DNA of 64,000 bases from a virus (taxonomy: Duplodnaviria > Heunggongvirae > Uroviricota > Caudoviricetes). The notes below the pieces were generated by a model, which worked only from the letters and a program-made list of their open reading frames with translations, made no database searches and was not told the origin of the DNA. Shown here piece after piece: positions 3 to 57,025 of the stretch (within the stretch, counting starts at the first letter, position 1; each line of letters begins with the position of its first letter). The DNA lies in the IMG/VR virus record IMGVR_UViG_3300045988_010208; one strand, given 5' to 3'. Made by a program: the position numbers and the translations under genes.

Positions 3-5797
<5,795 letters not shown>

Positions 5798-34903: not shown

Positions 34904-37048
34904 ATGAACAAAGTACAGATTATTAAAAAGAATGGCTCACTCGAAGAACCTGATATCAAAAAAGTTTTAGCAGCAGTCACAAAGTCAGCTAATAGGGTTG
35001 GGTATAAAGAACTCCCACCAGATGTTACCCAAGCTCTTGAGTCAGCATTTATGAGGATTCTGGTAAAATCCACTAAGCAGAATAATTTGCTAATTTCTGT
35101 AAATGATATTCACAGTATTGTTGAGGGTGCTTTGGCAGAAGTCAATCACGAGATTTATGAATCTTACTCAACATATAGAAATTACCGTAAAGAAGTTGCT
35201 CAAAATTGGGATGAACTCTACCAGAAGACCAGAGATACACTCTTCTTAGGTGACAGAGAGAATGCTAACTTTGACAGCAGTTTAATTTCTACAAAAGGTT
35301 CAATTATTCGTGGTTACCTGACTAAAGAAATCTTTAAACAGTACCATTTAACACCAGAGGAACTTGAAGCCATTGAAAAAGGGTTTATCTATATCCATGA
35401 TTTAAGAGACCTAATTTTTGGTGGTATCAACTGTTGCCTGTTTGACATTGGTAAAGTACTGAAAGGTGGCTTTGAAATGTCTGGCATTGAATATTGTGAA
35501 CCAAAGTCTGTGCTATCAGCCTTACAGGTTATTGGTGATGTAGTTCTTTCAGCAACTGCACAGCAATTTGGTGGCTTTACTTTAGCAGAGATTGATAAGG
35601 TACTTGTACCGTATGCTAAGAAGTCTCTACATTACCATGCTGAAAAAGCAGCGTCTTACGGTATTCCTAAAGAACATTACCACAATTATGTCATGGAGCA
35701 GCTACAGATTGAATTAACTCAAGGTTTTCAGTCTCTTGAAATGAAGCTCAATACTGTACCTTGCAGCCGTGGGGATTTTGCATTCACAACTTTGACATTC
35801 GGGTTACTTGACTCAGATATGTCCAATGAAGATAACCGACTGCAATACATGATTGCAAGTACTCTCCTAGATGTTCGTATGAATGGACAAGGTAAGAGCA
35901 AGAAGCCTGTTGTATTCCCTAAACTGGTTTATATTTATGACCAGAAGAGACACGATGAGAATATCTGTCAAGGCCACCTGTACAGTAAAGCTATTGAGTG
36001 TTGCTCTAAAGCAATGTATCCAGATTTCTTAAGTGTATCTGGTCATGGTGCTGTAGCAGAGGCTTTTGAGCGTTCTGGCAAGGTAATTTCACCGATGGGT
36101 TGCCGAGCGTTCTTATCACCATATCTTAACGATAATGGGGAAGAGTTCTATGTTGGTCGTGCTAACATTGGTGCTGTATCTTTGAACTTACCAATGATTT
36201 ACCAGTATTCTAAAGAGAATGGCTTAGATTTCTGGAAAGAGCTTGATAAGTACCTAGAAATGATTCGCAGCTTCCACAAGAAACGTTACGAAATGATTGC
36301 TAATATGCCAGCAAGTTCTAACCCTCTTGCATTCACACAAGGTGGTCTGTATAAAGGAACTAAGAAGCCTACTGACAGGGTTGGTTGGGATATTGTGAAG
36401 TCTTTCACAGCTTCTTTTGGGGTTACTGCGCTTGATGAGCTGTCTGTTCTTGCTGAAGGTAAACGACTTCATGAAGTTGGAAGCTGTAGTTTTGCATACG
36501 ATGTGCTGGAATATATCAACATGAAGACTGAAGAGTTTAAAAATGAAGATGGCTTCTTATATGCAGTCTATGGCACTCCAGCAGAATCACTTTGTGGAAC
36601 TCAGCTAAAACAGTTCAGAGATATGTTTGGAGTTATCAAGGGTGTTTCTGATAAGGAATACTTTACAAACAGTTTCCATATGAATGTTGCAGCAGACATC
36701 TCACCATTTGAGAAGCAGGACTTAGAAGAGCCATTCTTCCATATCTGTAGAGGCGGCAGAATCCAGTATGTAAGAGTAGCTAACCCAGAAAACTTAACAG
36801 CACTTAAAAGTTGTATTACAAGAGGGATGTTGAAAGGTTTCTATCAGGGACTTAACTTTGACTTAGCAATCTGTGAACATTGTGGTAACAGACCAAAGGC
36901 TGATGTTGAAGAATGTGAGGTTTGTCATTCACACGATATCTCTGTGATTAACAGGGTGTGCGGGTACTTGTCATTCACAAAAATTAAAGGTCAGTCTCGA
37001 ATGAATGACGCTAAGATGGCAGAAATTAAGGATAGGGTTTCTATGTAA
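34904..37048 (+). CDS. nrdD: anaerobic ribonucleoside-triphosphate reductase (class III)
   Basis: 714 aa; C-terminal zinc ribbon CEHCG...CEVC and glycyl-radical motif RVCGYL. Confidence 0.9.
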   Translation: MNKVQIIKKNGSLEEPDIKKVLAAVTKSANRVGYKELPPDVTQALESAFMRILVKSTKQNNLLISVNDIHSIVEGALAEVNHEIYESYSTYRNYRKEVAQNWDELYQKTRDTLFLGDRENANFDSSLISTKGSIIRGYLTKEIFKQYHLTPEELEAIEKGFIYIHDLRDLIFGGINCCLFDIGKVLKGGFEMSGIEYCEPKSVLSALQVIGDVVLSATAQQFGGFTLAEIDKVLVPYAKKSLHYHAEKAASYGIPKEHYHNYVMEQLQIELTQGFQSLEMKLNTVPCSRGDFAFTTLTFGLLDSDMSNEDNRLQYMIASTLLDVRMNGQGKSKKPVVFPKLVYIYDQKRHDENICQGHLYSKAIECCSKAMYPDFLSVSGHGAVAEAFERSGKVISPMGCRAFLSPYLNDNGEEFYVGRANIGAVSLNLPMIYQYSKENGLDFWKELDKYLEMIRSFHKKRYEMIANMPASSNPLAFTQGGLYKGTKKPTDRVGWDIVKSFTASFGVTALDELSVLAEGKRLHEVGSCSFAYDVLEYINMKTEEFKNEDGFLYAVYGTPAESLCGTQLKQFRDMFGVIKGVSDKEYFTNSFHMNVAADISPFEKQDLEEPFFHICRGGRIQYVRVANPENLTALKSCITRGMLKGFYQGLNFDLAICEHCGNRPKADVEECEVCHSHDISVINRVCGYLSFTKIKGQSRMNDAKMAEIKDRVSM

Positions 37049-37055
37049 CATCGAA

Positions 37056-37613
37056 ATGAATTACGAACTAATATATAATGCAATTATTAAGAAGGCACAT
37101 TCTGAAAGGGGTGTGCCTCTTACATACTACAAATGTCAAGGTAAGGGGTATGAAAGACACCATATCGTACCAGTATGTCTAGGTGGCGATAAAATTAGTG
37201 GAGATAATATTGCTTTACTTACACCTAGAGAACACTATATAGCTCATAAATTACTGGTTAAGATGTATCCAAACAATCATAAGTTATGGTTTGCATGGAA
37301 CAGGTTAGCTCATGATGGTTTAGATAGGAAAATATCATCCAGAGACTATGAAAAGGTAAGGGCTTTAAACTCGAAAGCTTTATCTATTGTGAATAAAGGC
37401 AGGGTTTTCACTGAAGAGCATCGAAGACGATTAGGAGAATCCCAAATAGGCAATACAAAGTCAAAAGGTTGTAAAAGGTCTATAGAAACAAGGAAGAAGA
37501 TGTCAGAAGCCGGAAAAAAGCCAAAGAAAAAGAAAACTTGCCCTCATTGTGGCATGACTGGTGGTGCTGGTAACATGACTCGATATCATTTTGACAATTG
37601 TAAGAAAAAATAA
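37056..37613 (+). CDS. HNH homing endonuclease
   Basis: ORF 37005-37613 trimmed to first ATG after the nrdD stop; HNH motif HHIVPVCLGGDKISGDNIALLTPREH; C-terminal CPHCG zinc finger. Confidence 0.7.
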   Translation: MNYELIYNAIIKKAHSERGVPLTYYKCQGKGYERHHIVPVCLGGDKISGDNIALLTPREHYIAHKLLVKMYPNNHKLWFAWNRLAHDGLDRKISSRDYEKVRALNSKALSIVNKGRVFTEEHRRRLGESQIGNTKSKGCKRSIETRKKMSEAGKKPKKKKTCPHCGMTGGAGNMTRYHFDNCKKK

Positions 37614-40436: not shown

Positions 40437-40707
40437 AGAGAAGTGGGAGATTTTACCATTAGTCAGTGAAGGTGGTAATGGTTGTGAAATGTACATGATA
40501 CGTGGTCATGTTCCAGAACCAATTGCACTTGAGATGGTAAACAACTTTACAGATGGTTCTTACAAAGACTTAGGAGAGCCAACTATAAAGCAGCAATGGG
40601 TAAAGCCTGTACCAGACAGCACAGGTAACTGTAGTGTACTTTATCACGTTGTAGACCCTGCAAAATGCAAATCTGCAATGGCAGTAACAAACGTAACTTT
40701 TGATTGA
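40429..40707 (+). CDS. hypothetical protein
   Basis: 92-aa ORF. Confidence 0.35.
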   Translation: MAKEKWEILPLVSEGGNGCEMYMIRGHVPEPIALEMVNNFTDGSYKDLGEPTIKQQWVKPVPDSTGNCSVLYHVVDPAKCKSAMAVTNVTFD

Positions 40708-41600
40708 GAGAGAAAACTATGAAAACTGTTATTGAAGCCGTCGTCACCGCACAAGAGAAATTCTTCCACACAGAAAAATTTAATATCATTCAATTCCCAT
40801 CTGGAGAAATTGGTGGAAACTTCTCTGAAGATTTTGTTAAGTTTACTGAGCGTAATGCTGGTAAGATTGACAATGTTATACTTACTGTACAGGGATATGA
40901 CAAAGATACACTGTTTGCATTAGCTTTGGCTAAGGATGCCGTTGACAGTCTTGTTCCCCAGAAATCAGCGATGAAAACCGTTGTTTTCGGGTTCTTACCA
41001 AATGCTCGATATGACCGCCACATGTTCAAAGGTGATGCAGCAGCACTGAAAGTCTTTGCCAACCTAGTTAATGCAATGGGCTTTGATGCAGTATGTGCTC
41101 TTGACCCTCACAGCAATGTTGCAGAAAACTTATTTAAGTGCTTTCAGAGCATGAAGCAAAAAGATGTGGCAGTACACTTTGCAAGTGACCCACGCATTGA
41201 TTTCTTGGTAGCCCCAGATGCAGGTGCAGCTAAGAAGACTGAAGATGCCGCTAAAGAGGTGGATAAACCATATATCACAATGGCTAAGGTGCGAAACCTT
41301 AAGACTGGAGAAATCACTGGTATGCGAATCCTTGACGATGTTGATTTGACCGATAAAACTGTCATGATTCTTGATGATATCTGTGATGGTGGTCGAACAT
41401 TCGTAGAGGCAGCTAAACACCTACGTGAAGCAGGTGCAAAACGTGTGGAACTCTATGTAACTCATGGTATTTTCTCTAAAGGTGTTGAAAACTTACTTGA
41501 CAATGGTATTGACCATATCTACACTACAAACACTTTAGGTGAAGCTAAAGACCGTGGCTTAACACATTACGGCCAAGTTACTGTAGCAACCATTGATTGA
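40704..41600 (+). CDS. PRPP synthetase-family protein (ribose-phosphate pyrophosphokinase or ADP-ribose pyrophosphokinase homologue)
   Basis: 298 aa; type I phosphoribosyltransferase-fold PRPP-binding loop VMILDDICDGGRTF; directly upstream of the NAMPT-like gene. Confidence 0.75.
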   Translation: MREKTMKTVIEAVVTAQEKFFHTEKFNIIQFPSGEIGGNFSEDFVKFTERNAGKIDNVILTVQGYDKDTLFALALAKDAVDSLVPQKSAMKTVVFGFLPNARYDRHMFKGDAAALKVFANLVNAMGFDAVCALDPHSNVAENLFKCFQSMKQKDVAVHFASDPRIDFLVAPDAGAAKKTEDAAKEVDKPYITMAKVRNLKTGEITGMRILDDVDLTDKTVMILDDICDGGRTFVEAAKHLREAGAKRVELYVTHGIFSKGVENLLDNGIDHIYTTNTLGEAKDRGLTHYGQVTVATID

Positions 41601-41608
41601 AACTTTAT

Positions 41609-41630
41609 AGGGGCTTGAAAGCCCCATTTT
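41609..41630 (+). terminator. weak terminator-like hairpin / attenuator
   Basis: GGGGC-UUGAAA-GCCCC hairpin followed by AUUUU; weak T-tract. Confidence 0.35.
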
Positions 41631-41645
41631 GAGAGAGATTAAAAG

Positions 41646-43427
41646 ATGACTAAATCACTTTATGCAGTACCAGCAGGTTTAAACGCAGATGCTTACAAAT
41701 CTGGTCATGTTTACCAGTATCCTAGTGCAACAGAGTACTTGATGTTCAACCTGACACCACGTAGCGACAAATGGTTTAACAGCCCTTTAGCAATTGATGG
41801 TGTAGTGGCTTTTGGTATTCAACGTTTTGTTAAAGATTACTTGATAGACCACTGGAACGCCACTTTCTTTGAACGTGATAAAAAAGAAGCAATTGACGAA
41901 ATCTTAGAAGTCATGAATGGTGTTCTGGGTAAAGATGCTATCGGTCGAGAGCATTGGGAAGCACTTCACGACTTAGGTTATCTGCCAGTTGAAGTATACG
42001 CTGTAGAAGAAGGCACAGTTGTCCCGATGCGTGTCCCAATGATTGTCTTCCAGAACACTGTTTCAGGTTTCCATTGGGTAGCAGGTTATCTGGAAGATGC
42101 TTTCTCTGCTGAGATTTGGAAGGCTTGCACCATTGCAACTATCGCATTGCACTACAAACGTATCTGTAAGAAGTGGGCTGACCTTACTTGCGACAACGAC
42201 TTACATTTACCTTATCAGTGCCATGACTTTGCTATGCGTGGTATGTCCGGCTTTACTGATGACGCATTTAACGCTGTAGGCCACTTAACCAGCTTTAAAG
42301 GAACTGATAGCTTCCCTGCTGTATACACGGCTAAACGCATCTATGGACAGTCTTACCCAATCTGTGATATTGGTAGCTCTGTACCAGCCACTGAACACTC
42401 TGTAATGTGTGCAAACATTGCTTGGGGAGGTGGTAATGAACTGATTGAAGAAGAAAGACGCTTTAAAGGTGAGTTACAAACCTTCCGTCGTTTCTTAACA
42501 GAAACTTACCCAACTGGTATTGCAAGTATTGTTTCAGATACTTATAACTTCTGGAGAACTGTGTCAGAAATCTTACCAGCACTCCGTAAAGAAATTATGG
42601 AACGTGATGGCAAACTGGTAATTCGTCCTGACTCTGGAGACCCTGTACATATTGTCACAGGTTATAAAGCAATCCACTTAGAGTGTGCTAAGAAGGCTTA
42701 TTATGAGCACCTAAGCAAGCTGGAAGCCAGTGACACAATGTTGAATGCTGTTCTGAACATGAAGCTTGAAAACATCAGCTATGGTATTGCTGGATGGCTA
42801 CTGTCAGAAGGCTACGAAATGGTTGTTGACAGAGAAGACTTTGAAGCTGCTGATACAGTGATGTTGAAAAATGCTTATATGGTTGGTTCTGCAAACGTTG
42901 TAACACGCCCTGTAGCTGAGATTGATGGAGCTATTAAGACACTGTACAACATCTTTGGGGGAACTATTAACTCTAAAGGGTTTAAGGTACTGGATGAGCA
43001 CATCGGCCTTATCTATGGTGACTCTATCACGCTGGAACGTGCAAACGAAATCCTGAAGCGTCTGTATGAAATGGGTTTTGCAAGCTCTAACGTAGTGTTT
43101 GGTGTAGGTTCTTACACTTACCAGTACATGACTCGTGACACCTTTGCATTTGCTGTCAAAGCAACTCTTGCAAGCATTGGTGGTAAAGAGATTATGCTTG
43201 CAAAAGACCCTAAAACAGATAGTGGTGTTAAGAAATCTGCCTTTGGTGGTGTAGCACCTATGTGGGATGGGGATAAGCTGAAAGCTGTAGATGGCTATGG
43301 ATTCCAGAGTTTTGCAGATGCACTTGACCACCCAGCTTGTGCTTTACGTTTAGTCTTTAGCGACTCTGAGCAGTTCGGTTACACAACTCTTGGTGATATT
43401 CGAAATAATATTGACAAGCAGCTTTAA
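41646..43427 (+). CDS. nadV: nicotinamide phosphoribosyltransferase-family protein (NAMPT/NadV-like)
   Basis: 593 aa; size and position match phage NadV-type genes paired with a Prs homologue; family call is by recognition, no motif verified. Confidence 0.7.
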   Translation: MTKSLYAVPAGLNADAYKSGHVYQYPSATEYLMFNLTPRSDKWFNSPLAIDGVVAFGIQRFVKDYLIDHWNATFFERDKKEAIDEILEVMNGVLGKDAIGREHWEALHDLGYLPVEVYAVEEGTVVPMRVPMIVFQNTVSGFHWVAGYLEDAFSAEIWKACTIATIALHYKRICKKWADLTCDNDLHLPYQCHDFAMRGMSGFTDDAFNAVGHLTSFKGTDSFPAVYTAKRIYGQSYPICDIGSSVPATEHSVMCANIAWGGGNELIEEERRFKGELQTFRRFLTETYPTGIASIVSDTYNFWRTVSEILPALRKEIMERDGKLVIRPDSGDPVHIVTGYKAIHLECAKKAYYEHLSKLEASDTMLNAVLNMKLENISYGIAGWLLSEGYEMVVDREDFEAADTVMLKNAYMVGSANVVTRPVAEIDGAIKTLYNIFGGTINSKGFKVLDEHIGLIYGDSITLERANEILKRLYEMGFASSNVVFGVGSYTYQYMTRDTFAFAVKATLASIGGKEIMLAKDPKTDSGVKKSAFGGVAPMWDGDKLKAVDGYGFQSFADALDHPACALRLVFSDSEQFGYTTLGDIRNNIDKQL

Positions 43428-43440
43428 AAGTATATGATAA

Positions 43441-43464
43441 GAGGCTCCTACGGGAGCCTTTTTA
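43441..43464 (+). terminator. intrinsic terminator
   Basis: GGCUCC-UACG-GGAGCC hairpin followed by UUUUU; ends the two-gene NAD-salvage unit. Confidence 0.7.
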
Positions 43465-43480
43465 ATTTCTGGAGAAAGAT

Positions 43481-43786
43481 ATGAAAATCAAAGAGATGAA
43501 CATTAACGTTGTCCTAGAAGAACGTTGGGAAAACATTAAGAAACCTGAAGATGGTAAAAAGTTCCTTAACAAAATTTTAGTAGCAGCTAAAGAAGAACTG
43601 ACTGGCAAGATTGCAGCAGCAATCACAATAAAAGTCTGTGTAAAAGGTCTTCCACAACATCACCAATTTGCACTTGACGAGTTTAAAGAAAGCTTCTACA
43701 ATCCAAACAAACAGATACTTGAAAGTAACTTTGCAGTGTCTACAAGTATCGTCCATGACAGAAGCTTTATCCTTTACAAAACATGA
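43481..43786 (+). CDS. hypothetical protein
   Basis: 101-aa ORF. Confidence 0.4.
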   Translation: MKIKEMNINVVLEERWENIKKPEDGKKFLNKILVAAKEELTGKIAAAITIKVCVKGLPQHHQFALDEFKESFYNPNKQILESNFAVSTSIVHDRSFILYKT

Positions 43787-43796
43787 GAGGTGAGTC

Positions 43797-43973
43797 ATGC
43801 AAGCATATTGGATAGAAATTTTACTGTCACTTGGTAGTGTAGCAGTATTTGTTTACCTTCTTTGCAAGTACTATGCAGAGCACAAGAAGTGTGACTACTG
43901 TAACGGAGAAGGGTACACAAGAGCAGGCTGTTGCCCTATGTGTGGTGGTTCTGGTAAAATGTTTAATAAGTAA
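43797..43973 (+). CDS. possible small membrane-anchored Cys-rich (zinc-finger) protein, 58 aa
   Basis: Not in ORF track; GAGGTGA RBS; my translation MQAYWIEILLSLGSVAVFVYLLCKYYAEHKKCDYCNGEGYTRAGCCPMCGGSGKMFNK (CxxCxGxG + CxxCxGxG). Confidence 0.4.
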   Translation: MQAYWIEILLSLGSVAVFVYLLCKYYAEHKKCDYCNGEGYTRAGCCPMCGGSGKMFNK

Positions 43974-44001
43974 TTTAACAGTAAACTAAGAGGAAAGTAT
44001 T

Positions 44002-46368
44002 ATGCGCATGGTAAATGACCACGCAGAAGTGATTAAGAGTTCAACTTCTTTGGAGACATCTCAAGCACAGATTACAATGACACCTGAAATGTTCAGCCTT
44101 CTGAGTTCTGGTGTATACACATTCAAAGAAAGGGCAGTGATTCGTGAACTGTCATGTAATGCAGTAGATGCTCAGAAAGAAGCTGGAAAAGAGAACATCC
44201 CATTCCATGTGCATTTACCTACTCGATTTGAGCCTTACTTTGAAGTCCGTGACTTTGGAACTGGTTTAACCCATGACAAAGTAATGAGTTTGTACCTGAA
44301 CTACGGGGCTTCTACGAAGAATGACTCTAATGATTACATTGGTGCAATGGGTATCGGCTCAAAATCACCATTTGCAATTGCTCAGTCATTCACAGTGTCT
44401 AGCTATGTTGATGGTGTTGTTAATAAGTACTCTGTTTACCTTGAGAATGGTATCCCTCAAGTAACTAAGCTTACTACTAACCCAACAAATGAACCTAATG
44501 GCTTAGCTGTACGTGTGGCAGTTGCTGACCACCGTATTTCAAAGTTCTTTGAAGAGGCTGGTCACGTATACTCATACTTTGCTGTAAAACCAGAAAGTAA
44601 CATTGTATATGATGATGTGTTAGCAGATATGAACGTCATTGCTCGTGAAGAAGGTGTTTATGATGCCATGATTCATAAGCAAAGCTGGCGTTCTAGTGGT
44701 AACAGGACAGAGTTTAATGTGGTGATGGGTAATATTGCCTATCCAGTGAACATGGAAGCATTACTTGGTGATGATTTCTTCAAAGTCTTGCCAGAGTTTT
44801 TCCGTAGGAGCGTAGACCTTGTAAACATTTACATGCCTATTGGTTCAGTCGCTATTGCAGCTTCTCGTGAAGCATTGCAGATGAATGATACGACAAAAAA
44901 TGTTATCATTGAGGCTACTAAAAAGATAACTGAAGCAATTACAAAGGATGTTATCAAGAAAGTTAATAGCCAACCTACACTCATGGATGCTGCACAGGCT
45001 TATGCAGAGTTACGTTTGAACTCACGAGAAATGTTTAATGCTGTGTGTCCAAAGCTAGAGTGGGGAGGTGTTAAGCTTGATTCTCTGGAAGAAGAATTGC
45101 TAAACATTCGTCGTGGGATTATCTACGCAGAAGACGGCTCAGTCATTTATGAACGTGACGGTAAAGGTAATATCAAGGTTGATAGGAACGGGAACAATAT
45201 CCCTAAAGTGGATTATCTTTATAATCCAGTTGCTTATGTCAAGTTCAACTCTTTAGAGAGTAAGATTCGTGCAACAGCACTTTCCTACACTCAAGAGGCA
45301 AGTATGTTCAATATCTTTGGTGCAATGCGTAAAAGCCAAATTGAACAGTTTTTGTTCGTGATAAATGACCGTCGTAATAAAAATGGCACTGAGAAGACTG
45401 TAGGCCGCAATCAGATTCTGCGTGGTGCATGTCGAGATTACGCCAATGAGTCAAATCTGTTTCACAGATACAATGGTATTGTGTTTGTATTCTCGACTGA
45501 AAAAGAGTTAGATGATTTAATCAACCTGCATAAACTTGATAAAAGTTTGTTAAAGATTGTGAAAATGTCTGATAAGGAGCACCATTACCAGCGTAAAGAA
45601 GCTGTCAGGGGTGTTGTAAAACTCTGGAAAGCAGTTCCGGCAGAAGGTGTAGCCTCCTACAAAGAGGTGTCAGAAGACTTAGACACAATTGAAGAACCTC
45701 AGCTTTACATTAAGGCAGTTGGTGACACAGTTGATGGCGAATGTTTTTGCTCATCTCCAGAAGATGTAGCTAAGTCAGTTGCTAATGTTATAGGGAAGAC
45801 AGTCTATGTTTTCCGAAAAGCAAATTGGAAAAAGATACCAGAAGACTGGATTGAAGTAGATGAGAAGCTCTTGAACGACAGCTTAACTGATGTTCATTGG
45901 ATTAATCATAACAGGTATATGACACGCATCTACATGAATGGTGTTCTTGACCTTACAAGCAGTTGGATTATTGCCAGAAACTTTACATTCAATAACAGGA
46001 AGATTTCTCGTGGCTATTGCTATTCACGAGATACTAGCAAAACTATCTTCCTAGAAGGTAATGAAGAGGCTGTAGAGGCTATGTTCGGTAAAATCCAGTA
46101 TGTTGCTGCACCGTTTGCATACACTTACACTATTAGTAGATTGCAAACTTTGAAAGAATGCCTTGACAATGATACAAAACTGTACAAGAAAATTAAGAAA
46201 GCTGGTGACCGCATGGTCATTAAGGTGACAAACTACCTTTCAAAAAGAAAACAAGAGAACTTCTTGCTTTCTCATTTAGATTGGAATAAAGTGTCACCCA
46301 TCGAAGTGAGTAAGTTCTTAGGCTTTGATGTGAAGTGTGTTCCAGAAGGGACTACAATTTACGATTAA
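44002..46368 (+). CDS. rIIA: rIIA-like protein with N-terminal GHKL-type ATPase motifs
   Basis: 788 aa; N-terminal RELSCNAVDAQ, RDFGTGL and GAMGIGSKSPF boxes as in T4 rIIA / GHKL ATPases. Confidence 0.65.
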   Translation: MRMVNDHAEVIKSSTSLETSQAQITMTPEMFSLLSSGVYTFKERAVIRELSCNAVDAQKEAGKENIPFHVHLPTRFEPYFEVRDFGTGLTHDKVMSLYLNYGASTKNDSNDYIGAMGIGSKSPFAIAQSFTVSSYVDGVVNKYSVYLENGIPQVTKLTTNPTNEPNGLAVRVAVADHRISKFFEEAGHVYSYFAVKPESNIVYDDVLADMNVIAREEGVYDAMIHKQSWRSSGNRTEFNVVMGNIAYPVNMEALLGDDFFKVLPEFFRRSVDLVNIYMPIGSVAIAASREALQMNDTTKNVIIEATKKITEAITKDVIKKVNSQPTLMDAAQAYAELRLNSREMFNAVCPKLEWGGVKLDSLEEELLNIRRGIIYAEDGSVIYERDGKGNIKVDRNGNNIPKVDYLYNPVAYVKFNSLESKIRATALSYTQEASMFNIFGAMRKSQIEQFLFVINDRRNKNGTEKTVGRNQILRGACRDYANESNLFHRYNGIVFVFSTEKELDDLINLHKLDKSLLKIVKMSDKEHHYQRKEAVRGVVKLWKAVPAEGVASYKEVSEDLDTIEEPQLYIKAVGDTVDGECFCSSPEDVAKSVANVIGKTVYVFRKANWKKIPEDWIEVDEKLLNDSLTDVHWINHNRYMTRIYMNGVLDLTSSWIIARNFTFNNRKISRGYCYSRDTSKTIFLEGNEEAVEAMFGKIQYVAAPFAYTYTISRLQTLKECLDNDTKLYKKIKKAGDRMVIKVTNYLSKRKQENFLLSHLDWNKVSPIEVSKFLGFDVKCVPEGTTIYD

Positions 46369-46373
46369 AGTGT

Positions 46374-46403
46374 TTGACAAGGGGCTTCAAAGCCCCTTAG
46401 AAT
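46374..46403 (+). promoter_or_regulatory. promoter-like element with hairpin in spacer
   Basis: TTGACA, then GGGGCTT-CAA-AGCCCC hairpin, then TAGAAT at 18-nt spacing; about 45 nt upstream of 46448. Confidence 0.4.
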
Positions 46404-46447
46404 AGCCTTACAAAATGGTTTATTAACTAACAAGAGAGAGTAATAAG

Positions 46448-47557
46448 ATGACTACTAAAACTAAAGCACAGATTGACGCAGAAATTTACAAACTGGTTAA
46501 AGAAGGTAAGCTGACTAAAACAGCTATTGCACAGAAATTTAATACTTCAACCCGTTCAGTTGGTCGTGCTGTAGAGCGTCATGAAGCAACCTTAAAAGGT
46601 AATAAGAAGGCGACTTCTACACCAGCTACGAAGACTTTGAAACAAGTTGCTAAGACTTTTAAAAAGAAATCTGGCAAACAAGTTGAAAAGGTCGTTAAAG
46701 ATGCTGTACAGAAAGCTCCAGTAAATAAACTGCATGAAGCTATGCAGAAAGATGACAAAATTGAGTACATGATTACTGGTGACTCTGTAATTATGACTTA
46801 CGGTTCAGAGTCTGAAATTGTTGAATCTACTCATCCGAACTATCAAGAGATTGTAGTTCATGTTGTGAAAGGTGAGTTCAAGAAAGCCTTTGAACTGATG
46901 AACATTCGTAAGTCTATCGAAAACTTCACTCAGGGTGCTATCACAATCAAAGGTGACAAGTTATTCTACGGTGCTGTTGAGATGCGCTCTACTCTGGTTG
47001 ACCGTATTCTTCACATGATGAAGACTGGAGATAAAGGTTTTGAACGCCTTGTGATGTTCTTCGAAAAACTGATGGAAAACCCATCTAAAGACTCTGTAGA
47101 ACAACTTTGGGGCTTTGTATCTCACCTTGATGTTGAAATTGATGAAGAAGGCTACATCATTGGTTGGAAGAAAGTCTCTACTCGTGAAGGTAAGCTGGTT
47201 GACTCCCACACCTACAGAGTACCTAATGATTTGGGTAACATTGTAGAGATGCCACGTTGGATGGTTGATAATAACCGTAACGTAACTTGCTCTCAAGGTC
47301 TTCATGTTGGTGCTTGGGATTATGTTCGTTGCTTCTCAGGTGATACAATCCTGAAGGTTCGTGTCCATCCACGAGATGTTGTATCTGTTCCAACTGATTA
47401 CAATGATATGAAGATGCGCTCGTCTCGTTATGAAGTTGCAGCAATCGTTGATAGTCAACGTAAAGTGCTGAAAGCATGGGATGGCAAGACTGACGCTTTA
47501 CATGTCATCGTCGGTACTGCTGGAGAACTTATCTCCCAACGTAAACGTGAAATCTAA
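46448..47557 (+). CDS. rIIB: putative rIIB-like protein
   Basis: 369-aa ORF immediately downstream of the rIIA-like gene; N-terminal HTH-like segment; call rests on synteny. Confidence 0.4.
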   Translation: MTTKTKAQIDAEIYKLVKEGKLTKTAIAQKFNTSTRSVGRAVERHEATLKGNKKATSTPATKTLKQVAKTFKKKSGKQVEKVVKDAVQKAPVNKLHEAMQKDDKIEYMITGDSVIMTYGSESEIVESTHPNYQEIVVHVVKGEFKKAFELMNIRKSIENFTQGAITIKGDKLFYGAVEMRSTLVDRILHMMKTGDKGFERLVMFFEKLMENPSKDSVEQLWGFVSHLDVEIDEEGYIIGWKKVSTREGKLVDSHTYRVPNDLGNIVEMPRWMVDNNRNVTCSQGLHVGAWDYVRCFSGDTILKVRVHPRDVVSVPTDYNDMKMRSSRYEVAAIVDSQRKVLKAWDGKTDALHVIVGTAGELISQRKREI

Positions 47558-47572
47558 TAAGTAATTTCTTAA

Positions 47573-47596
47573 AAGGCTGCTTCGGCGGCCTTTTTT
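47573..47596 (+). terminator. intrinsic terminator
   Basis: GGCUGC-UUCG-GCGGCC hairpin followed by UUUUUUAUUU. Confidence 0.65.
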
Positions 47597-47657
47597 ATTT
47601 GTATTTTGTGCAGAGTGCTGTATAATTGTTGTCACGATAAACTAAACAGGAGAACCA

Positions 47658-48206
47658 ATGAAGAAATTGATTCTAGGTTTGTGCTTAATGTTTACAGCAC
47701 ACTTATCTTATGCAGTTGACTGCCCAGAGCTATCAATTAGCCAAAAAGTAAACATGTTAAAAGCTTACCAGTATGGTGAGAATAACATGGGTAAAGGTTG
47801 GGGTATCACTCTAGCTGCTATAGCCTTACAAGAGTCAGAGTTAGGTCTGAAGGTAGAGAATAAAAAGACGCATGATTATGGTATTTTCCAGAATCACTTG
47901 AAGACTGTTGTAAAGCGTAACAAAATCAGTCCTAATGTGGCTAAAAAGAAACTCTTAAAAGACTTTGACTATGCTGCGAAGGAAACGCACAAAGAGCTTG
48001 AGTTTTGGACAAAGGTACATGGTCAGCCAAAGTCAAAGAAGACTTTACAAAAAGTTTTAGCATCATATAATGCTGGGTATTCGTACAGAATCCCTAAAGC
48101 TAAGAAATATTCTCAAGATGTTTATAACAATATGAAAGTAATTGCTCAATGTGAATTTGCAACAAACATTTCTAAGGTAGACCATGAAAAAATTAAGAAA
48201 GTCTGA
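47658..48206 (+). CDS. secreted lytic transglycosylase (SLT domain)
   Basis: 182 aa; signal peptide MKKLILGLCLMFTAHLSYA; SLT motifs LQESELG (catalytic E-S), YGIFQ, SYNAGYSY. Confidence 0.6.
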   Translation: MKKLILGLCLMFTAHLSYAVDCPELSISQKVNMLKAYQYGENNMGKGWGITLAAIALQESELGLKVENKKTHDYGIFQNHLKTVVKRNKISPNVAKKKLLKDFDYAAKETHKELEFWTKVHGQPKSKKTLQKVLASYNAGYSYRIPKAKKYSQDVYNNMKVIAQCEFATNISKVDHEKIKKV

Positions 48207-49406: not shown

Positions 49407-49754
49407 ATGACATTTAAAGAGTTCTGTCAAGCCACTTTCATAATTGTTTTCTTAGTTGGGGCAGGTGTCTGGGGAGGATACTCTTACAGAGACTATCAAG
49501 TTGCTGAAACTGAGCTAAACAACCAAAAGCTCATAAGTGTTGCTAAAGATGCTTATCAGGAAGGATTAGTCACACTGAGCACCAATTACAAAAATGATTT
49601 GAAAGATGTGCTTGCTAAGAATAAGCATACAAAAGAGGTACTAACATATGAAAAAACTAAGCCAGAGTTTTATAATGTTTGTGTTACTGATAACTATGTC
49701 AGGGTGTTCAACGAACAAAGTGAGCAGTACATTCAAAAACTCCCAAGTAAGTGA
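49407..49754 (+). CDS. candidate i-spanin (inner-membrane anchored periplasmic protein)
   Basis: 115 aa; N-terminal TM helix FIIVFLVGAGVWGGY then charged helical region; 3' end overlapped out of frame by a lipoprotein ORF. Confidence 0.4.
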   Translation: MTFKEFCQATFIIVFLVGAGVWGGYSYRDYQVAETELNNQKLISVAKDAYQEGLVTLSTNYKNDLKDVLAKNKHTKEVLTYEKTKPEFYNVCVTDNYVRVFNEQSEQYIQKLPSK

Positions 49755-49917
49755 GAGTGATAAGTACACTCAAGAAGAATCACGGTACATCATCAAAGGC
49801 AACACAGGCAGTGATGTAGCAGCAGCCCTTGAGTTCTATCGTGATGGATTTTACCAGTGCACAATCAAAGCTAATAACCTTATTGATATGATTTTATTAG
49901 GGAATAAGCAGCAATGA
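49648..49917 (+). CDS. candidate o-spanin (outer-membrane lipoprotein)
   Basis: 89 aa; signal peptide MKKLSQSFIMFVLLITMSGC with lipobox-like MSGC; starts inside 49407-49754 in another frame. Confidence 0.4.
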   Translation: MKKLSQSFIMFVLLITMSGCSTNKVSSTFKNSQVSESDKYTQEESRYIIKGNTGSDVAAALEFYRDGFYQCTIKANNLIDMILLGNKQQ

Positions 49918-56988: not shown

Positions 56989-57025
56989 ACGCCGCAACGG
57001 GGCTAAATAGCCCCAGATACCTTAA

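Follow-up and report, generated by a model that had tools for sequence, protein, structure and literature searches.

The 64,000-nucleotide stretch of viral DNA analysed here (IMG/VR record IMGVR_UViG_3300045988_010208; hereafter, the window) carries, at positions 44002-47557, two adjacent genes that can be assigned to rIIA and rIIB of a Felix O1-like phage (Felixounavirus). This pair is, in our opinion, very probably a conditionally essential counter-defence module, and the name "lysis inhibitor" under which such genes are often deposited is historical. The gene names themselves are correct and already known: deposited relatives carry them, and publications on Felix O1-like genomes have used the names rIIA and rIIB from at least 2015 onward. 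The general interest lies with the rII family, some 70 years after Benzer, and not with this particular copy. Two angles appear mildly new and are put forward as hypotheses, namely the mosaicism of rIIB alleles and a lineage-specific spacer that would uncouple the two genes. The initial annotation, made from the DNA letters and their open reading frames, had placed the pair in the anti-exclusion repertoire of the phage; this placement is supported by profile matches, by the assignment of RIIA to the GHKL ATPases and by published tests on close relatives.

The source of the window is a Felix O1-like myovirus. Over positions 43400-47700, it shares 96.8% identity with Escherichia phage LinBro (Felixounavirus); 277 phage records match this region, and 210 of them span at least 80% of it; their hosts are mostly Escherichia, Salmonella and Shigella. 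Three phages are used for comparison throughout. Bas63 (Escherichia phage JohannRWettstein, Felixounavirus), whose gp84 and gp85 are RIIA and RIIB, belongs to the same genus and has the same gene order: Adps, Namat, small open reading frames (ORFs), rIIA, rIIB, a 182-residue ORF and PNK. phiSUSP1 (Suspvirus, Ounavirinae; hereafter SUSP1) shares the subfamily and the synteny. T4, the source of the founding members, shares with the window the PHROG families, the order of the GHKL motifs, the architecture of RIIB and the order of the two genes.

Identity and domain content of RIIA and RIIB

The product of the first gene (44002-46368, + strand) is 788 residues long and had been likened to T4 RIIA, a likeness that profile comparison bears out strongly. 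Residues 1-770 match the phrog_612 profile over positions 1-716 of 725 (E = 5e-189), and T4 RIIA matches the same profile (E = 9e-250). BLASTP aligns residues 24-317 with T4 RIIA at 32% identity (E = 2e-37); the C-terminal half gives no BLASTP alignment to the T4 protein, although it lies inside the phrog_612 match.

The GHKL boxes reported for this protein in the arrangement of T4 RIIA are present and align in order with their T4 counterparts. Thus, NAVDA (residues 53-57, within RELSCNAVDA) aligns with RELITNMIDA, DFGTGL (residues 84-89) with DFGPGM, and GIGSKSPF (residues 117-124, within GAMGIGSKSPF) with GLGSKSPF; in the same order, the protein displays the N-box consensus ExxxNxxD, the G1 consensus DxGxG and the G2 consensus GxxGxG. 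Among 114 homologues that are 22-68% identical to the query, E49, N53, D56, D84, G86, G114, G117, G119 and K121 are invariant, and G88 is kept in at least 90%. The box residues are therefore conserved and do not reflect chance.

The N-terminal module of RIIA (residues ~28-330; 44083-44991, + strand) is predicted to consist of a GHKL (Bergerat-fold) ATPase domain followed by a second, transducer-like domain. It should be noted that curated models stay below their thresholds here: Pfam HATPase_c gives E = 0.077 and 13.9 bits, under a cut-off of 26.4, and a relaxed Pfam-A search was likewise uninformative; the NCBIfam HSP90-family model reaches 3e-11 and 42 bits, far under its equivalog cut-off of 455; and a sacsin ATP-binding model, at 5e-7, is also under its cut-off. 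A PF13589 match is precomputed for some RIIA homologues. The sub-threshold GHKL matches extend over 250-330 residues, which means that they cover both the ATPase and the transducer-like domain, as in the clamp ATPases of the GHL/MORC type, and fold-level comparison finds the GHKL three-dimensional fold in RIIA. On motifs and fold, not on curated thresholds, RIIA is a divergent member of the GHKL superfamily and a predicted ATPase of the gyrase/Hsp90/MutL/MORC type. Its sequence identity to GHL/MORC-type ATPases (Hsp90/TRAP1, MORC2/3, SMCHD1, TopoVI-B and MutL) is 11-15%, and, unlike them, it has an unrelated C-terminal half of ~460 residues and an obligate partner that contains a helix-turn-helix (HTH).

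The C-terminal region of RIIA (residues 331-788; 44992-46368, + strand) is variable among lineages and has no recognizable domain, its ~460 residues matching no Pfam model at default or relaxed thresholds. Its structure model is confident, with a predicted local distance difference test (pLDDT) score mostly above 85. Identity to SUSP1 RIIA is 52% in this region and 77% in the N-terminal part. A sequence search of the PDB returned no relative of either RIIA or RIIB. One related genome, otherwise 98-99% identical (L004, IMGVR_UViG_2706796256_000001, positions 1054-3421; L numbers are our locus labels), has a rIIA frame that stops after 303 residues, with the downstream part still 99% identical; the stop may be genuine, making the phage naturally rIIA-null, or it may stem from an error in sequencing.

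The second gene (46448-47557, + strand; 369 residues) had been described as an ORF in the rIIB position, and so it is: it lies on the same strand directly 3' of rIIA, and its product matches both the phrog_609 profile (E = 1e-88, as compared with 6.6e-111 for T4 RIIB) and T4 RIIB itself (BLASTP, 38% identity over 331 residues, E = 2e-61). A match to PF26926 is precomputed for the representative of its 97%-identical cluster (P0121) and for nearly all listed homologues. The structure model of RIIB has a mean pLDDT of 83 and three parts. The first is an N-terminal three-helix HTH (residues 6-49; 46463-46594, + strand) resembling sigma region 4, LuxR or DeoR-like domains. The second is a Lys-rich linker (residues 53-91; 46604-46720, + strand), which is predicted to be disordered (pLDDT <50) and varies between the window and Bas63. 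The third is a conserved mixed alpha/beta core (residues 94-366; 46727-47545, + strand) whose fold was encountered in RIIB-family proteins only. Within the genus, its final ~130 residues form the mosaic part, the one that varies. A BFVD search with RIIB returned only RIIB-family proteins and gave no functional lead for the core.

RIIA and RIIB most likely act as one complex, as several features of their genes suggest. Of the 80 viral loci with rIIB that were sampled, 70 include enough upstream DNA to be judged, the remaining 10 being truncated where their contig ends; all 70 have a rIIA homologue 5' of rIIB in the same orientation. In the majority of distant rII loci (from among L015-L083), the rIIB start is only -1 to +2 nt from the rIIA stop, a tight junction that suggests translational coupling. 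Phage RB43 encodes a natural single-chain RIIA-RIIB fusion of 1,049 residues (BFVD Q56C47). A fusion of this type accounts for the behaviour of the phrog_609 profile (1,055 positions), which matches RIIA proteins with its N-terminus and RIIB proteins with its C-terminus, so that both T4 proteins match it. Moreover, among 50,697 phage records nearly equal numbers contain rIIA (2,926) and rIIB (2,911). Synteny, coupling, the RB43 fusion, the dual profile matches and the near-equal counts together support a physical complex, for the structural study of which the RB43 fusion should be useful. A few loci (L078, L081) have 581-853 nt between rIIA and rIIB, possibly holding an inserted gene.

The counter-defence role

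The assignment of a counter-defence role draws on experiments with relatives. Deletion of either g84 or g85 of Bas63 lowers plating 10^4-10^5-fold on hosts with QatABCD, and complementation largely restores it (PMC11482910). CRISPRi-ART knockdown of either rIIA or rIIB of SUSP1 causes the efficiency of plating to drop on E. coli with RexAB and leaves it unaffected where Rex is absent (PMC11879866). Analogously, transposon insertions in T4 rIIA and rIIB are depleted only when RexAB is present (bioRxiv 10.1101/2025.11.20.689424). RIIB can also be a liability to the phage: on its own, the T6 protein is toxic to E. coli and sets off a CARD/gasdermin system of Lysobacter, which rIIB-null phages escape (PMC10312443). 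The initial annotation had placed the pair among anti-exclusion genes, with the protection of T4 from Rex-type exclusion as background. The counter-defence role stands but extends beyond Rex-type systems, the Bas63 pair countering QatABCD.

The tested proteins resemble those of the window to different degrees. RIIA is 98.6% identical to that of Bas63 and 63% to that of SUSP1; for RIIB the values are 81.8% and 79%, the window carrying a different rIIB allele from Bas63. The text of the PhageMaP study describes Bas63 gp84 and gp85 as having "high sequence homology (>80%)" to T4 RIIA/B (PMC11482910); as measured here, Bas63 and T4 are 32% identical in RIIA (N-terminal 306 residues only) and 36% identical in RIIB.

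The older view, that RIIA and RIIB form a lysis-inhibition system acting on the holin/endolysin pathway to delay lysis, has left many traces: PHROGs classes both families under "lysis", many GenBank records read "RIIA/RIIB lysis inhibitor", r mutants were historically defined by rapid lysis, and spanin genes lie ~2 kb downstream of the pair (49407-49917, per the SUSP1 and Bas63 annotations). We nevertheless regard it as very improbable. Knockdown or deletion of the genes leaves plating normal on hosts that have no defence system (PMC11879866; PMC11482910; bioRxiv 10.1101/2025.11.20.689424), so that the effect on lysis timing listed in the initial annotation is better seen as an indirect, historical phenotype. 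No transmembrane helix or signal peptide is predicted in either protein, and neither looks like a holin, antiholin or periplasmic sensor; what they contain is a GHKL ATPase domain in one case and an HTH in the other. Paddison and colleagues reportedly concluded, in Genetics in 1998, that exclusion encoded by prophages accounts, indirectly, for the rapid lysis of T4 rII mutants.

In our reading, rII is very probably a two-protein counter-defence module, produced from an early/middle gene block, in which the likely RIIA-RIIB complex stops host or prophage abortive-infection systems from firing. RexAB and QatABCD are among these systems, and the module is dispensable on hosts that have none of them. 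The step at which it would act is more tentative. Possibly, a shared infection signal would be removed or masked upstream of the effectors, with RIIA as an ATP-driven clamp and RIIB as its nucleic-acid-binding partner, rather than each effector being plugged individually. To this we would give rather less than an even chance; the argument is that a single module defeats unrelated systems and combines an ATPase of the clamp type with an HTH protein, both of which favour upstream action. A GHL/MORC-type ATPase, an HTH partner whose core has no known fold, strict pairing and natural fusions are handles by which the mechanism could be tested.

A serious rival to action on an upstream signal is that RIIA and RIIB work directly at the membrane as protectors of its integrity, stabilizing the potential or blocking a pore or channel effector; this, too, we would give rather less than an even chance. 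RexAB, which rII counters, kills by membrane depolarization, and the T4 RII proteins fractionate with membranes. Directly 5' of rIIA, moreover, a 58-residue single-pass membrane protein is encoded that is 100% conserved in Bas63. The toxicity of T6 RIIB on its own, and its triggering of a gasdermin system, point in the same direction (PMC10312443). Neither a transmembrane segment nor an amphipathic anchor, however, is evident in RIIA or RIIB, and the combination of a GHL/MORC-type ATPase with an HTH is typical of machines that clamp nucleic acids or client proteins. Nor is QatABCD known to work by way of the membrane, depolarization being a proposal of the PhageMaP authors only (PMC11482910).

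Several points weigh against the reading that we prefer, a counter-defence complex acting on an upstream signal. The molecular mechanism of rII, in any phage, is called "poorly understood" in the literature. T4 biochemistry puts both RII proteins at the membrane, which fits action at the effector step equally well. At the same time, no transmembrane helix is predicted in RIIA (Kyte-Doolittle 19-residue maximum 1.29) or in RIIB (0.69), and any membrane association would therefore be peripheral. Finally, the functional data come from relatives, and the rIIB allele of the window is 18% different from the Bas63 allele that was tested, mostly in the C-terminal third.

The rIIA-rIIB spacer and flanking regulatory elements

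The two rII genes of Ounavirinae are separated by a spacer of 78-79 nt with a promoter and a hairpin, which is 79 nt long here (46369-46447); the gap in T4 is 11 nt (circular map, from coordinates). The promoter-like TTGACA/hairpin/TAGAAT element that had been noted between the genes is present as described (46374-46403, + strand). It is a putative sigma-70-like promoter, TTGACA-18-TAGAAT, that matches the consensus at 11 of 12 positions, with the -35 hexamer at 46374-46379 and the -10 hexamer at 46398-46403; a hairpin with a 7-bp stem, AGGGGCT-TCAA-AGCCCCT (46380-46397), fills the whole 18-nt spacer between the two.

We take the site to be real because it is conserved, not because of its consensus score. 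The window contains 3 instances of the pattern TTGACA-N16-19-TANAAT, where 0.54 would be expected, and an overall promoter scan returns 24 sites as compared with 21.9 expected from shuffles, that is, no enrichment. The promoter/hairpin block is present in every Felixounavirus locus that was fetched and in the SUSP1 lineage. The spacer of Bas63 differs by one base, its promoter and hairpin being identical, and that of SUSP1 is 78 nt long and has the TTGACA/hairpin/TAGAAT block. Between the window and SUSP1, identity is 90% in the block from -35 to -10, 55% in the stretch from -10 to the Shine-Dalgarno region and 87% in the Shine-Dalgarno region; the drop from 90% to 55% argues for selection on the promoter/hairpin block.

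The element at 46374-46403 is probably an internal rIIB promoter that overlaps a generic RNA stem-loop, not a dedicated operator, and by means of this predicted promoter the expression of rIIB in Ounavirinae could be uncoupled from that of rIIA. It counts against this reading that the promoter amounts to a consensus match and its conservation. T4 rIIB also has promoters of its own, inside the end of rIIA, so that an internal rIIB promoter is not a new idea; the 79-nt spacer is particular to this group.

The palindrome in the spacer, together with the HTH of RIIB, bears on another explanation, according to which RIIB would mainly act as a transcription factor, and RIIA would serve it as a partner ATPase. 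Phage or host transcription would be reprogrammed, with defence evasion as a downstream consequence; in a sub-version, RIIB would repress its own promoter through the palindrome between -35 and -10. The likeness of the HTH to sigma region 4, LuxR or DeoR-like domains is in keeping with this, RIIB has been classed as a specific transcription factor (Iyer et al. 2021; PMC7824862), and the conserved palindrome AAGGGGCTT/AAGCCCCTT is located where operators often lie. However, stem-loops of the form GGGGC-N6-GCCCC occur 3 times in the window, against 0.03 expected, and two of them occupy intergenic sites that have no promoter. One (41610-41625) is followed by ATTTTG and falls within the 45 nt that separate Adps from Namat; LinBro and SUSP1 have an HNH endonuclease gene there, which the window does not. 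The other, at 56999-57014, adjoins a strong terminator with which the + strand block closes. Recurrence of this type of stem-loop at two non-promoter sites speaks for generic RNA hairpins rather than for a dedicated operator. In addition, most rII loci have no spacer, so that autoregulation through a spacer site cannot be family-wide. Overall, we consider it improbable that RIIB acts mainly on transcription and hold to a counter-defence complex.

As an RNA element, the spacer hairpin is probably a weak attenuator or a stabilizer at the end of the rIIA message. Its interpretation as a strong rIIA terminator was rejected, given that the stem is followed by only 2 T in 8 nt, as compared with 5-6 for nearby real terminators. 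The stem is invariant in all fetched loci, so that no compensatory changes were seen in it. The loop has two forms among relatives (L006, L009, L010, L011 and L004), TTCAAA or TTTGAA, each complete hairpin being the exact reverse complement of the other, as expected from the flip of a small palindrome and not from two independent substitutions. Scans for transfer RNAs and Rfam families found no match anywhere in the window; thus, no known RNA element is involved.

The terminator that had been reported after the pair was recovered as an intrinsic terminator ending the rII unit (47571-47600, + strand). It has a 10-bp stem (47571-47594) and a T-rich tail, TTATTTGT, in which 6 of 8 nt are T, with a fold energy of -14.7 kcal/mol; the record of phage Tribble has a terminator annotated at the equivalent site. 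Upstream of rIIA, the hairpin that terminates Namat (43439-43462) has a 10-bp stem, a fold energy of -16.6 kcal/mol and 5 T among the next 8 nt. Directly adjoining it is a promoter-like TTGACA-16-TATGAT (43411-43438) that agrees with the consensus at 11 of 12 positions, the two together spanning 43411-43462 on the + strand. The promoter-like part is probably where a transcription unit begins that includes two small ORFs and continues into rIIA, and the whole would be a compact, insulator-like promoter/terminator cassette, in which transcripts from upstream would end and new ones would start inside the stem.

Arrangements of this kind recall the PeSLs, promoter/stem-loop cassettes of T4-type phages that were reportedly described by Arbiol and colleagues in 2010. 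Like these, the rII spacer joins what is predicted to be a strong sigma-70-like promoter to a GC-rich stem-loop within an intergenic region, and 43411-43462 offers a possible second example. The rII spacer differs from PeSLs in the position of its hairpin, between the -35 and -10 hexamers, and in the poor U-tract of that hairpin; moreover, three hairpins of its type occur in the window, one of them in a promoter.

Diversity of rIIB alleles

Judged by protein identities among phage records, rIIB is a diversity hotspot within Felixounavirus, whereas rIIA is nearly invariant. For RIIA, 214 records are at least 95% identical, none falls between 90 and 95% and 1 falls between 80 and 90%; the corresponding numbers for RIIB in the same database are 132, 68 and 25. 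Compared with Bas63 rIIB (L087, 13827-14933), the divergence is concentrated in the linker and in the C-terminal third and tail. At the DNA level, identity to Bas63 is 67-81% over 47072-47668 and returns sharply to 100% just past the gene. Localized divergence with such an abrupt return points to a mosaic rIIB allele and to allele exchange.

One possible reason for this diversity, speculative and on the whole unlikely, is that RIIB, chiefly its C-terminal third and tail, is seen by host immune sensors. Allele swapping would then be a means of escape, and the Ounavirinae spacer, whose promoter and hairpin take the place of the tight coupling of other loci, would permit rIIB to be exchanged and expressed as a cassette of its own. 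RIIB is suggested as the sensor target because T6 RIIB alone triggers the CARD/gasdermin system. Whatever their origin, rIIB alleles differ between otherwise near-identical phages and could affect host range on strains with Qat, Rex or RIIB-sensing systems, which is relevant to the use of Felix O1-like phages in the biocontrol of Salmonella or E. coli.

Genome context and neighbouring genes

The rII genes sit in a long + strand block of nucleotide-metabolism and early/middle genes. Their neighbours differ from those in T4, which are a topoisomerase gene and denB; here they are the NARP1 genes and PNK. The Prs-like Adps (40704-41600) is 98.6% identical to Bas63 gp79, and the NAMPT-like Namat (41646-43427) is 98.8% identical to Bas63 gp80. 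The two Bas63 proteins constitute the experimentally defined NARP1 pathway, which rebuilds NAD+ against NAD+-depleting defences (bioRxiv 10.1101/2024.02.11.579819), and rII and the NARP1 pair look like a small counter-defence cluster, a point likewise relevant to biocontrol with Felix O1-like phages. The database names of the NARP1 genes, "ribose-phosphate pyrophosphokinase" and "nicotinamide phosphoribosyltransferase", are misleading.

Two small ORFs lie between Namat and rIIA. The first (43481-43786, + strand; 101 residues, phrog_4262, function not assigned) is kept in position in Bas63, LinBro and SUSP1 and is 96% identical to its Bas63 counterpart. The second (43797-43973, + strand; 58 residues, phrog_3931, a family of unknown function) is the gene for the membrane protein mentioned above, which is annotated in Bas63 as a putative membrane protein. 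It has a single N-terminal transmembrane helix (Kyte-Doolittle 19-residue maximum 2.11) and two DnaJ-type CxxCxGxG zinc-finger motifs, CDYCNGEG and CPMCGGSG. This product could be a candidate membrane partner for the RII proteins, which have no transmembrane helices of their own.

Near-identical phages of this group differ in homing-endonuclease content. The nrdD gene of the window is intact (714 residues, 34904-37048) and is followed by a 202-residue NUMOD3/HNH-like homing-endonuclease ORF (37005-37613); nrdD of LinBro and of Bas63 is interrupted by an insertion with an HNH endonuclease. Two GenBank records, MG065664.1 and MG065668.1 ("Campylobacter phage A132" and "A126", host listed as Campylobacter jejuni), are 95.6% identical to the region in DNA and 99.4% identical to RIIA in protein sequence; they are Felixounavirus sequences, and their host label seems to reflect contamination or mislabelling.

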